A stretch of 64,000 bases of DNA. It comes from an uncultured Verrucomicrobiae bacterium. GTDB taxonomy: Bacteria > Verrucomicrobiota > Verrucomicrobiia > Chthoniobacterales > JAFAMB01. Position numbers and translations under genes: made by a program. The notes below the pieces were generated by a model. It searched no databases. It was not told the origin of the DNA and saw only the letters and a list, made by a program, of their open reading frames with translations. Below, piece by piece: positions 1 through 3,334 of this stretch; position 1 is the stretch's first letter, and each line of letters starts with the position of its first letter. The DNA lies in assembly GCA_963813025.1 (NCBI GenBank), contig CAWEXO010000011.1, positions 490,230 through 554,229 of the forward strand, read 5' to 3'.

Positions 1-849
1 AATCCGCCCGCGATTATCTATGCGATCTGCTCGGGCGCAGTGAACTACACGCGCCGGTTTTTTGACGAGGTGCTCCGCCCGGATGTGCCGACGCCCAGCC
101 CGCTCCTGTTTTCCGAAACCGTGTTTAACGGGCCGGCCAGCCATCTGGCGGCGGTTCTCCGGATGGATGGTCCGGTCTACACCCTGGTAGGCGACTCGGC
201 CGTTGGCTTGTCGGCGATCCACTTCGCGGCGGAGCTGCTGGACATCGATCCGACCCTGGAGAGTTGCCTGGTCGTTGGGACGGAGGAGATAAATTGGGTC
301 TTGCCGGAGGCTTTTCAGTCCTGGCGGATGGTCAGCCGAACACCGCGGTGCGAGGTTTTTGGCGAAAGCCACGGCGCGGTCTTTGGAGAAGCGGCGGCTG
401 CTGTCCTCATCGGGCGAGGGCCGGGCTTCCGGCTGGCCTATACCGGCGGCGGCCAGCCGTTTTTCTCGACAAAAGATGCCATTGAAACAACGGAAAAAGT
501 GGTGCGCCAATGCGTCGGCAGCGCGGGCCAGCCGGACATCATCATTGCCAGCGCGAACGGCACCTTCGTCGATCAGGCAGAATCCTGGGCGTTCTCTCTT
601 GGTAAGCTCCGCGCACCGGTCTACGCGTATAAGCCAGCCCTGGGTGATGCCTTGGGTGCCGGCGCGGTTCTTCAGGTTGTCCTTGGTTGTCTCGCTTTGC
701 AGCACCAGATATTGCCCGGCACACTTTCCGCGGGCAACGGTCTAGGGCTGGTGAATCGTATCACAAGACCGGTTGACGCTGATCGTTGCCTGATCAGCAC
801 GGTCGGGTTCAGTCAGCAGGCTAACGCGCTGATGATTGAGCTTAAGTAA
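1..849 (+). CDS. beta-ketoacyl synthase-like protein, C-terminal part (5' end lies outside the window)
   Basis: Frame 1 is open from nt 1 (NPPAIIYAICSGAV precedes the GTG at 40 used by the ORF track). It has the thiolase-fold KS-like C-terminal half (FSETVFNGPASHLA, VVGTEE, GAVFGEAAAAVLI, STVGFSQQANALMIE). No start codon is present in the window. Confidence 0.6.
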   Translation, partial: NPPAIIYAICSGAVNYTRRFFDEVLRPDVPTPSPLLFSETVFNGPASHLAAVLRMDGPVYTLVGDSAVGLSAIHFAAELLDIDPTLESCLVVGTEEINWVLPEAFQSWRMVSRTPRCEVFGESHGAVFGEAAAAVLIGRGPGFRLAYTGGGQPFFSTKDAIETTEKVVRQCVGSAGQPDIIIASANGTFVDQAESWAFSLGKLRAPVYAYKPALGDALGAGAVLQVVLGCLALQHQILPGTLSAGNGLGLVNRITRPVDADRCLISTVGFSQQANALMIELK

Positions 850-996
850 GGTAGCGCGGACCGCCTGGCCCGGAGCGTGCGGGGCGAGTGAAGCGAACAA
901 TGTGCTGGTATAGGGGGAGAAACAGAGACCGTCTTGCAACCGGTTTTTTCTCTGTGTCGGTAGGGCGAAAATTCATTGGAGCTTTAGCGAGAACTC

Positions 997-2388
997 CTAA
1001 GAAACTAAATCCGTGGCTGGGTCTAGAGGCGTGAGTTGGAGTCCGAATTCTTTGGCTCGTCGGCTGAGATTGTGAAGTAGGCGGTCTTTGTATTTTTTCT
1101 CGTAGTAGAGTTGCCCTTGCTCGACATAGGCAGCTCCGAACTTGAGCATGCGATAGAACAAGCGTGCCAGTTTATGAGCTCCGGCGTTGATGGCGGTGGG
1201 TGCCCCCAATCGGGCTTTGATGCGGCGGATAAAAGCGCCGATGGCCGTCTTACTTTGCATGGCTCCTTGGGCCGCCAGCCGGAACATGGCCGCCGCGCGA
1301 TTCTTGGTTTTTCTGGGGCTGGAACTGAGCAGTTTGCCGCCGCTGATGCGATTGTCCGGACAGAGTTTAAGCCAGGAGCAAAAGTGTTTTTCGCTTTTCC
1401 AACAGGTCATGTCTAAACCCGTTTCCGAAATGATGACTTCCACCGCCAAGGTGCTCAAGCCAGGCAACTGACTCAGATCGACACCACAAACGCTGGCCAG
1501 ATGCGCTCGGCGCTGCAGGGCTAGGCGAACTTGGGCCGACCGTGCTTGGGCCGCCCCGCTTTGCTCGAGGGCTTGCTCCAAATCTAGTTTAGTGTCGAAT
1601 TGCTCAAGTTGTTGCTCAATCTTGCTTTCGCAGGCGGTGATCTTGAGCTGGTAGGTGTCATAGAGTTCCAGGGCCGTTTGCAAGGCGAAGAGATGCTCGG
1701 CTCGGTAATCTCCCTGTAAGGCTTTGACGATCTGATCAGTGGATGCTTTCACTTGGGGGTGTTTCATCTGGGCAAGCTTGAGCGGATTGCGTTCTCCGGC
1801 CAAAATCGCCCGAATCATCGCCATGCCACTATAACCGGTGATGTCGCTCAACACGCGGTGCACTTGGATATTCATTTCGGTTAAGGCCTTCTGCATGCGT
1901 AACACATGGCTGCTGCAGTCCTTAACCAAGGTGTCGCGCAGGCGCAGGAAGCTGCGCAAGACGCAGACCTCGTCCTTGGGTCGGAACGAGCCGTTTAAAA
2001 GACCAAAGGTGTGGAGTTGTTGAAGCCATTGGCAGTCCGAGACGTCGCTTTTGCGTCCAGGCAGATTCTTGACATGAGCTGCGTTGACCAATTTTACCTC
2101 CAACCCTCTCTGCTCCAGAATCTGGAACACCGGTATCCAATAAACCCCCGTTGATTCCATCACTACGGTCTCAATGTGGTGTTCGCTCAGCCAGTCAGCC
2201 ATCCGCTGCAGATCGCTCGTAAAAGGGCCAAACTTGCGCACCGTTTCTGAGCCGCGGTCTTCGGGAATGGCCACCAGGTGAAAATTCGCCCCGATATCGA
2301 TTCCTGCGGCCTTGAGATTGATCCGTTCCAGAACACTCCGGTGAGTTTTTGATTTGTTCTTTCGCTTGGTCGTGGTTTTCTTTGCCAT
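997..2388 (-). CDS. IS110 family transposase/recombinase (DEDD RuvC-like domain + Transposase_20 domain)
   Basis: 463 aa. N-terminal motifs AAGIDIGANFHLVAI and VVMESTGVYW. C-terminal motifs LPGLSTLAVEVIISETG and FCSWLKLCPDNRISGGK, typical of IS110-family enzymes. Confidence 0.9.
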   Translation of the reverse strand: MAKKTTTKRKNKSKTHRSVLERINLKAAGIDIGANFHLVAIPEDRGSETVRKFGPFTSDLQRMADWLSEHHIETVVMESTGVYWIPVFQILEQRGLEVKLVNAAHVKNLPGRKSDVSDCQWLQQLHTFGLLNGSFRPKDEVCVLRSFLRLRDTLVKDCSSHVLRMQKALTEMNIQVHRVLSDITGYSGMAMIRAILAGERNPLKLAQMKHPQVKASTDQIVKALQGDYRAEHLFALQTALELYDTYQLKITACESKIEQQLEQFDTKLDLEQALEQSGAAQARSAQVRLALQRRAHLASVCGVDLSQLPGLSTLAVEVIISETGLDMTCWKSEKHFCSWLKLCPDNRISGGKLLSSSPRKTKNRAAAMFRLAAQGAMQSKTAIGAFIRRIKARLGAPTAINAGAHKLARLFYRMLKFGAAYVEQGQLYYEKKYKDRLLHNLSRRAKEFGLQLTPLDPATDLVS

Positions 2389-2758
2389 ACCTCTCTTGGG
2401 TTAGATGTTGTTCTTGCTTTCACACTGCAGCGCATCGGCCCGAGTTGGTAGATAGAGAGAAATCTCCTAAACAGGATAGCTCCAGATCGGCAAACAACCC
2501 GATCTGGAGCTTCGCTAATGCAACAACCAAAACGCTCGGAACCAAACTAGCTATCGGGCATAAAGCTCCAATGCCACACCGGTCTTAACTGCCGACCCAC
2601 TGCTGCCTACTTTCTACGTCGAGATGCCCAAGGCAATCAATCCAGTGTTTCTTGCCGCAAAAAGAACGCGCAGAGTTCTGGGGAACTAGCTAGTTTGAGC
2701 CGTCTTGGGTGTGGCTATCTCAAAGCCCCGGCTCAAACAAGTTCTCGCCTGGCGCTCG
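2389..2758 (-). ncRNA. candidate IS110 bridge (guide) RNA region in the 5' non-coding arm
   Basis: About 370 nt with no credible ORF, on the same strand and immediately upstream of the recombinase. It has a perfect 12-bp stem-loop at 2479-2510. Nested complementary pairs occur at 2543-2553/2687-2697 and 2693-2702/2729-2738. Segment 2561-2573 is the exact reverse complement of 974-986 at the opposite IS end. RNA boundaries are not determined. Confidence 0.35.
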
Positions 2759-2899
2759 AATGAATTTTCACCCTACCGATACAGAGAAAAGACACTACGA
2801 CACAATACCGGCGATAAGTTGCCGTTACAGGCTGGGCTGGGCAGAGCCGCCTGCGCTTCGGATTGATTCCGGGTAGGGAATACGGCATAGTGCGCCTTT

Positions 2900-3334
2900 A
2901 TGGGCGCCAGGCTCACCCCGACCCGATCTTCTGCTGTTGAGGATTATCTTGAGCAAATTCTTGATCTCATCAACGCGAAGGGTTATGCGCGAGTTGCCGA
3001 TATCGCCCAAGGATTGAAAATCTCACAGGCTAGCGTCACGAATATGGTGCAGCGTTTGGACTCGGAGGGGCTGCTAAAATATGAGAAGTACCGAGGACTG
3101 GTTTTAACGACCGCGGGCGAGACCCTAGCTCGAAATATCATGCAACGGCACCATCTCCTAAGCGATTTCTTTCGTCTGCTTGGAGTCGATGAAGATGTGA
3201 TCTACCACGACGTGGAGGGGATGGAACATCACATCAGCCCACCAACGCTTCACGCGATCGAGGCTTTAATGAAGGAACTACAGCAACAACCGAAACTACT
3301 TGCTCGCATCAGACCCCACCCTCATGGCAGTTGA
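2900..3334 (+). CDS. mntR: DtxR/MntR-family metal-dependent transcriptional regulator
   Basis: 144 aa. Winged-HTH region EDYLEQILDLINAKGYARVADIAQGLKISQASVTNMVQRL, followed by a His-rich metal/dimerisation region (QRHHLLSDFF, VEGMEHHIS). Confidence 0.85.
   Translation: MGARLTPTRSSAVEDYLEQILDLINAKGYARVADIAQGLKISQASVTNMVQRLDSEGLLKYEKYRGLVLTTAGETLARNIMQRHHLLSDFFRLLGVDEDVIYHDVEGMEHHISPPTLHAIEALMKELQQQPKLLARIRPHPHGS

Follow-up and report, generated by a model that had tools for sequence, protein, structure and literature searches.

Bridge and seek RNAs have been described before, and most IS110 elements are predicted to encode them, so the basic finding described here adds one family rather than a new principle. 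The IS621-type bridge RNA of the IS110 group was reported by Durrant et al. 2024 (PMC11208160) and Hiraizumi et al. 2024 (PMC11208158), and experiments have demonstrated the guide mechanism for IS621, ISEc21 and IS1111-type elements (PMC11208160, PMC11187229). According to Siddiquee et al. 2024 (PMC11187229), the top-strand segment comes before the bottom-strand match in the RNAs of IS1111-type elements, and the order is reversed in the IS110 type. ISMtsp17 is a relative of IS1111 with an upstream non-coding region, whose RNA was not characterised in that work (PMC11187229). Hairpin-gated targeting has been reported for ISPpu10, a 'structure-gated' bridge recombinase (bioRxiv 10.64898/2026.03.19.712850).

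In the 64-kb stretch of DNA analyzed here (the window), positions 994-2685 are very probably a copy of an IS110-family insertion sequence with a bridge (seek) RNA of some 167 nt encoded in its left end, at 2598-2432 on the recombinase strand. As in IS621, the RNA lies in the left non-coding end, upstream of a DEDD/Ser recombinase and in the same sense. This arrangement differs from that of IS1111-type elements, in which the non-coding region is downstream of the transposase gene; here, the right end stops 3 nt past the recombinase stop codon in the window copy and is 3-25 nt long overall. As read from the sequence, the system has two variant features. The candidate top-strand guide is located 5′ of the bottom-strand guide, which is the IS1111 order, even though the RNA is upstream of the gene, and the element carries covarying subterminal repeats. 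A preliminary description of this DNA had proposed a bridge RNA upstream of an IS110 recombinase; that outline was supported by the covarying structure and the guides presented below, but the element ends and the donor segment given with it were not. The element and its immediate surroundings comprise the following features.

994-2685, minus strand: insertion sequence, 1692 bp counting one copy of the AG core, delimited by homologue boundaries and junction distance
997-2388, minus strand: recombinase gene, 463 aa, IS110-family DEDD/Ser type
2389-2685, minus strand: left non-coding end, 297 nt, holding the RNA gene; conserved in relatives, without a conserved ORF
2647-2653, minus strand: left subterminal inverted repeat, AAGAAAC in the sense of the element, pairing with GTTTCTT
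999-1005, minus strand: right subterminal inverted repeat, GTTTCTT, immediately followed by the donor sequence TAGGAG
2686-2693, minus strand: left target half plus core, CTAGCTAG, in flanking DNA and common to about 30 otherwise unrelated left flanks
974-993, minus strand: right flank, TTCTCGCTAAAGCTCCAATG in the sense of the element, host DNA
Predicted donor junction (right end joined to left end): ...GTTTCTTAGGAG joined to TTCCCCAGAAC...

The assignment of the recombinase to the IS110 family, with a start at 2388, was upheld. The product of the ORF at 997-2388 matches PF01548 (DEDD_Tnp_IS110, E 6e-20), PF02371 (Transposase_20, E 7e-7) and the NCBIfam model NF033542, 'IS110 family RNA-guided transposase' (247 bits, for a cut-off of 140), and it contains a K-S-D-V-S-D motif. 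Unlike the IS621 enzyme, with which it is barely alignable, the protein has 463 residues. Its weak alignment to the solved IS621 recombinase structure 8wt6 (E 4e-5) places the GID motif, the glutamate of ME-S-TG and the serine of I-S-GG in register with D11, E60 and S241 of IS621. tblastn searches against plasmids aligned the protein, at 28-34% identity, with IS110-family transposases encoded on plasmids of Streptomyces, Mycobacterium and Arthrobacter; none of the listed matches was named IS5075 or IS4321. Placement relative to the IS110 and IS1111 groups had IS621 as its sole reference sequence.

We delimited the element by comparison with its relatives, using a scan of one genome per species that yielded 80 loci encoding relatives of the recombinase. 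Nucleotide homology of loci L001-L005 with the window breaks off at 2685 and 994. The five closest relatives (79-88% protein identity, Verrucomicrobiae) share the window only from TTCCCCAGAAC (2685 downwards) to TTTCTTAGGAG (ending at 994), and beyond those two positions the flanks are unrelated. The junction-to-junction distance of the window element is 1692, and L004 carries the element twice in tandem, with a repeat period of 1696 bp. The same placement of the ends was found in multi-copy families of a deltaproteobacterium, Scytonema and Leptolyngbya. A 20-base pattern from the RNA, scanned against metagenomes, retrieved 33 further close relatives. The left junction was locatable in 26 of these 33 loci, and all 26 flanks end in (C)TAGCTAG or a one-base variant of it before TTCCCC. 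Overall, about 30 independent, otherwise unrelated left flanks stop at (C)TAGCTAG directly 5′ of TTCCCC. The junctions of distant relatives were often located with the guides themselves, which makes them partly circular as evidence, whereas the multi-copy families and the 33 metagenome loci are free of that circularity.

Because homologues, multi-copy families and metagenome flanks agree on the ends, we assigned the element to 994-2685, with a left end of 297 nt. Positions 2686-2790 and 974-993 are therefore flanking target DNA. The element had initially been drawn from about 945 to 2790, with a non-coding arm of about 370-400 nt and with 974-986 at or across its other end; these limits were displaced by the homologues and the insertion sites, and 974-986 sits 8-20 nt outside the true right end at 994. 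The statement that no plausible ORF separates the recombinase start from the left end was in agreement with our analysis, as no conserved ORF is present in 2389-2685.

Unlike members of the IS110 group, which have repeats of 2-3 bp, the window element has subterminal inverted repeats that measure 7-10 bp across lineages. The two copies covary from lineage to lineage (AAGCAAC/GTTGCTT, AAGTAAC/GTTACTT, AATAACA/TGTTATT and AAGAAACACA/TGTGTTTCTT). In this the element is like the IS1111 group, with subterminal inverted repeats of at least 7 bp (the IS1111 range is 7-17 bp). The left copy follows a GC-rich hairpin, 33-45 nt in from the left end, and is set further in than in IS1111 elements.

The RNA core lies within the left non-coding end and has the following parts.

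2432-2598, minus strand: structured RNA core, 167 nt, with a closing stem (P1) around two stem / internal-loop / hairpin arms
2598-2592 / 2438-2432, minus strand: closing stem
2584-2580 / 2544-2540, minus strand: first arm stem
2570-2555, minus strand: first arm hairpin, UGGAGC / loop UUUAU / GCCCG
2539-2534 / 2445-2440, minus strand: second arm stem
2517-2472, minus strand: second arm hairpin, with the perfect stem-loop of the preliminary description (2478-2511) as its apex
2573-2579, minus strand: candidate guide for the top target strand, GUGUGGC, in the first internal loop (5′ strand)
2545-2554, minus strand: target guide AUAGCUAGUU, 3′ strand of the first internal loop, between the hairpin and the 3′ strand of the stem
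2462-2471, minus strand: donor guide UUUAGGAGAU, 3′ strand of the second internal loop, directly 3′ of the second hairpin

An nhmmer profile built from seven left ends detected the same stretch of about 175 nt ahead of the recombinase gene at 73 places, corresponding to about 60 distinct sequences from Verrucomicrobia, Cyanobacteria, Deltaproteobacteria and others. All but one of the 73 matches are on the recombinase strand. Folding with homologues, which had been suggested at the outset as a check for covariation, gave five helices when RNAalifold was applied to a 35-sequence alignment. Pair counting on those 35 sequences showed that 95.2% of cells are paired, compared with 81.1% after shuffling and 31-51% with the partners slid. 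Compensatory changes were found at 26 of the 33 pairs, and no shuffle reached the observed covariation score. In the first hairpin, alignment pairs 45-62 (GC in 24 sequences, AU in 11) and 49-59 covary. The foot of the second hairpin has 10 base pairs, 7 of them with compensatory change, and its apical part varies in length among relatives; the apical stem-loop itself, first noted as a perfect 12-bp structure at 2479-2510, is present but is 13 bp long (2478-2490 with 2499-2511). Several G-U pairs of the core are invariant, and the opposite strand would give A-C at these positions; the RNA therefore has the sense of the recombinase. Folded as a single sequence, the conserved 177-nt core was clearly more stable than shuffled versions (z -4.2), and the whole 402-nt arm folded somewhat better than its shuffles (z -2.6). 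The earlier view of the non-coding arm as a structured candidate bridge RNA is thus consistent with a conserved, covariation-supported structure whose loops track the target and the element end.

An Rfam 15 scan of positions 700-3200, with E values up to 10, identified no matching family; the sole match was a chance-level CssrB hit on the other strand (19.9 bits compared with 76, E 0.39). A sigma-70 consensus promoter scan of 2380-2800 found no promoter, and, unlike in IS621, a junction promoter was not identified. A weak -10-like box, TAGAAA, is present at about 2610-2615, 12 nt before the closing stem. In most lineages, -10-like hexamers (TATAAT, TACACT, TATGAT, CATAAT) can be seen to precede the closing stem by 6-12 nt, and no convincing -35 box accompanies them. 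These hexamers hint that the RNA may have an internal promoter. Between the RNA structure and the recombinase start codon there is no terminator.

The most variable block of the RNA is the target guide. In the window copy, AUAGCUAGUU has the same sense as the left flank with the AG core (CTAGCTAG) followed by the first 2 nt of the element (TT), giving a 9-nt match at the left junction TAGCTAG/TT. In about 50 loci, the guide agrees at 8-10 of its 10 positions with a site that precedes the RNA core by 86-106 nt. The guide block of L004, AUUAGGAGUU, together with its flank, CTTAGGAG, represents a natural reprogramming. The 11-nt pair 2543-2553 / 2687-2697 had been listed as nested, long-range complementarity of the non-coding arm; the complementarity is genuine, but it is that of the target guide with the palindromic target CTAGCTAG. 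That octamer, and not the sequences gaaaattcatt / aatgaatttt for which target guides were initially to be sought, is the real target. CTAGCTAG occurs once in the 64-kb window, at the occupied site 2686-2693.

AG is invariant at positions 7-8 of both guide blocks and is found at both junctions of the multi-copy families and metagenome loci. We take it as the core dinucleotide, common to the target, the donor and both guides. The 2 nt that follow AG were also considered as the core, and this was ruled out, as the right junctions do not repeat those bases. Positions 9-10 of the target guide were analyzed in 30 distinct elements, with the junction located from guide positions 1-8 only. They agree with the two leading bases of the element in 90% and 87% of cases, respectively, and the mean match was 1.77 out of 2, compared with 0.96 +/- 0.10 after permutation. 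As they match the element's own first bases, this pairing would form only after strand exchange, in the product. The handshake guides of IS621 pair likewise in the product (PMC11208158).

The donor guide UUUAGGAGAU corresponds in sense to the right end of the element, TTTCTTAGGAG, including the AG core. Having the sequence of the right end and core, it would be able to pair with the donor. It covaries with the right end in at least 12 variants, among them AGGAG, AGAAG, AAGAG, GAAAG, GAGAG, AAAAG, GGGAG, GGAAG, CAGGAG, CTAAGAG and ATAGAAG. Agreement of its positions 9-10 with the first two bases of the flank was not significant (p 0.08). A guide for the left end of the element (the right donor half) was not found on the 5′ strand of the second loop (4.72 versus 4.67), and a column-by-column concordance screen for such a guide elsewhere in the RNA was without signal.

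A candidate top-strand guide was found on the 5′ strand of the first loop. In the family, it consists of 6-7 nt ending in a conserved C, complementary to the G of the core and to positions 1-5 of the right flank. Its mean complementarity across the family was 2.66 out of 5, compared with 1.46 +/- 0.18 when elements and sites were permuted; none of 5,000 permutations reached the observed score, and the signal appeared in one register only. In the window copy, the guide matches 0 of the 5 flank positions, and in close relatives 0-1 of 5. The right target half predicted to suit the window guide GGUGUGGC best is CCACAC. As it is unmatched in these copies, target choice there rests on about 7 bases. 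The left flank contains an exact complement of the candidate guide GGUGUGGC (2580-2573): GCCACACC, at 2708-2715, within the inner hairpin loop of the target. Just before this complement stands GATAGC, a sequence similar to the beginning of the target guide. The complementary site is on the wrong side of the insertion point for a canonical role, and the chance expectation for such an 8-mer is about 0.6.

The RNA thus resembles that of IS621 in having two stem / internal-loop / hairpin arms, the first loop being variable and corresponding to the target and the second being conserved and corresponding to the element end. As in IS621, the target and the donor have a 2-nt core in common, and AG here is CT on the other strand, the IS621 core. 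The 3′ guide of the first loop is made up of 6 nt, the core and 2 nt, the last 2 matching the donor, in the manner of the RTG and handshake guide of IS621. Given the CT core on the other strand and this layout, the chemistry is probably the same as that of IS621. The layout differs from that of IS621 in that the bottom-strand guides are on the 3′ strand of both loops and the candidate top-strand target guide is on the 5′ strand. With the bottom-strand guide 3′ here and 5′ in IS621, we infer that the junction polarity would be opposite, the junction being inverted relative to the genes. In addition, the closing stem joins the two arms, unlike in IS621, and a separate 5′ stem-loop was not seen. 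The top-strand-complementary segment precedes the bottom-strand match, as in IS1111-type seekRNAs. By analogy with the IS621/seekRNA mechanism, the recombinase would bind the RNA (2598-2432), the RNA would hold the circular element and the target together, and exchange at the common AG (CT on the other strand) would insert the element. The insertion in the window would have occurred into a 155-nt palindromic intergenic element, on the match of the left half alone.

This palindrome is split by the element, with its larger part on the left.

2686-2793, strand not applicable: palindromic target, larger part (other part at 943-993)

A 40-nt inverted repeat (943-982 / 2754-2793, 90% complementary) brackets the whole element. 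It had been regarded as the element ends, and it turned out to be the outer stem of the target DNA. When the empty site was reconstructed, it folded as one hairpin, about 155 nt long and of -53 kcal/mol under DNA parameters, with an outer stem of 40 nt, a middle stem GCGAGAAC/GTTCTCGC and an inner stem GTTTGAGCCG/CGGCTCAAAC. The second long-range pair initially attributed to the non-coding arm, 2693-2702 / 2729-2738, does exist, as a pairing of 13 nt (92% complementary, 2690-2702 / 2729-2741), but it is located wholly in the flank. Long inverted repeats beside an IS110 element can thus be the target and not the ends. No second copy of the palindrome was found in the window or the fetched loci, and no empty target site was recovered in the window or in all fetched loci. 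IS110-family members often insert in palindromic intergenic elements.

Insertion beside a DNA hairpin in an intergenic palindromic element is a feature that the window copy has in common with ISPpu10. A 10-bp stem-loop in the window target ends directly before CTAGCTAG, and a DNA hairpin often ends 0-4 nt before CTAGCTAG in left flanks (those of the window, L001, L003, L005 and others). Unlike in ISPpu10, the hairpin is not general in this clade: among the 31 left flanks of close relatives, 6 had z below -2 and the mean z was -0.5. The proposal that a hairpin always precedes the target was therefore rejected, hairpins being enriched and not general. In L082 and L085, two copies are arranged head to head around one palindromic CTAGCTAG (GGGGAA-CTAGCTAG-TTCCCC), an arrangement to be expected if both orientations of the 8-bp palindrome are readable.

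We then considered the exact 13-nt inverted match between 974-986 and 2561-2573. By our own arithmetic, about 0.002 such matches are expected by chance between a 300-nt end and a 200-nt flank on both strands, and the match is therefore unusual. On the RNA side, 2573-2561 comprises a conserved C-A-U, the 5′ strand of the first hairpin and four loop bases, and this segment is nearly invariant in close relatives irrespective of their flanks. The partner is in host DNA, at +8 to +20 beyond the right junction. We compared this RNA segment with 17 independent right flanks of close relatives. The window showed 13 nt of complementarity, the other sixteen a mean of 4.7 nt, and shuffles 4.4 nt; 14 of the 16 were at or near the shuffled mean, the exceptions being L002 (7 nt, P 0.02) and L103 (6 nt, P 0.095). 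No conserved DNA motif was detected in the right flanks, including a shared CAATG at +16 to +20. As the 13-mer is part of the scaffold and has no such complementarity at 16 other flanks, it is neither a donor guide nor a family feature; the match noted initially is real, but its reading as a donor-binding guide is not retained, the segment that covaries with the true right end being 2471-2462. The match may be due to chance or may have been a local aid to a half-matched insertion.

The latter possibility, that the 13-nt complementarity was functional at this one site, with extra pairing between the RNA of the first loop and right-flank positions +8 to +20 assisting the half-matched insertion, is in our view unlikely. 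It would be conceivable that other help was needed where the top-strand guide matches 0 of 5 positions, an adjacent 7-nt match is present (UUAGCGA, left-end positions 176-182, with flank +4 to +10), and the 7 nt of L002 are in the same register. However, we rated this reading low because the conserved hairpin would have to open and the register does not continue the canonical guide pairing; the other sites, with their near-shuffled values and right flanks devoid of a conserved motif, also argue against it.

We consider it very unlikely that the structure is an mRNA leader controlling translation or stability, or that the repeats are DNA sites for the recombinase, without guide function. The lack of a terminator before the start codon and of a clear promoter would fit a leader, and the subterminal inverted repeats do resemble protein-binding sites. 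Such a reading leaves unexplained why a 10-nt block changes in step with the flanking host DNA and why a second block tracks the far end of the element. The G-U pairs and compensatory changes argue for selection on RNA, and a guide mechanism has been shown for IS621, ISEc21 and IS1111-type elements (PMC11208160, PMC11187229). The original version, in which an element of about 945-2790 is bounded by the 40-nt repeat and 2561-2573 is a donor guide pairing with 974-986, does account for a real inverted repeat and for a 13-mer hardly expected by chance, but it is extremely improbable given that relatives share nothing past 2685 and 994, that about 30 unrelated flanks abut the same ends, that the 13-mer is conserved scaffold in a covarying hairpin without counterpart in sixteen other right flanks, and that the true right end covaries with a different segment (2471-2462).

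The recombinase of the 994-2685 element belongs to a widespread clade of enzymes of 430-470 aa, with members in Verrucomicrobia, Cyanobacteria, Deltaproteobacteria and rhizobia, as well as on plasmids of clinical Citrobacter and Enterobacter. We tentatively propose, as a possibility that we hold with less than even confidence, that this clade represents a third layout of RNA-guided IS110-family elements. It would combine an RNA in the left end, as in IS110/IS621, with the polarity, guide order and subterminal repeats of IS1111 and a 2-nt handshake on the long guide, and in several sublineages the target guides would have been reprogrammed to the right ends of relatives. If this is true, guides reprogrammed in that way would build tandem or nested arrays. 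The apparent combination of an IS110-type location and an IS1111-type guide order bears on the kinship of the two groups. The analysis also provides a corrected map of the element, with its ends, core, guides and subterminal repeats. The 167-nt scaffold, with its delimited programmable blocks in a clade far from IS621, could serve as an orthogonal engineering system.

For some members, the ends of other mobile elements serve as targets, as they do for IS4321 and IS5075 of the IS1111 type. Sublineages at L004, L022, L021, L029, L034, L031 and L051 have UUAGGAG, UUAGAAG, UUAAGAG or GAAGAG as target guide. These sequences are those of the right end of other family members, and the copies sit directly after such an end. 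In L004 (2698-6094), the tandem dimer is followed by a 41-nt partial third left end, and the left flank of L021 matches the right end of the Scytonema family (L012). Three RNA copies are present in one 7.3-kb locus (L007:2655-7317), spaced by 126 nt that repeat the same left flank. This locus looks like a segmental tandem duplication of flank and element.

Exact-protein look-ups for other copies in the same genome had none on record, and a protein cluster look-up returned at least 6 nearly identical proteins, encoded on large NCBI contigs. More than 80 plasmids from clinical Citrobacter, Enterobacter and Klebsiella (e.g., NZ_CP026698.1, Citrobacter koseri) carry a relative whose protein is 47% identical; it is annotated there only as 'IS110 family transposase'.
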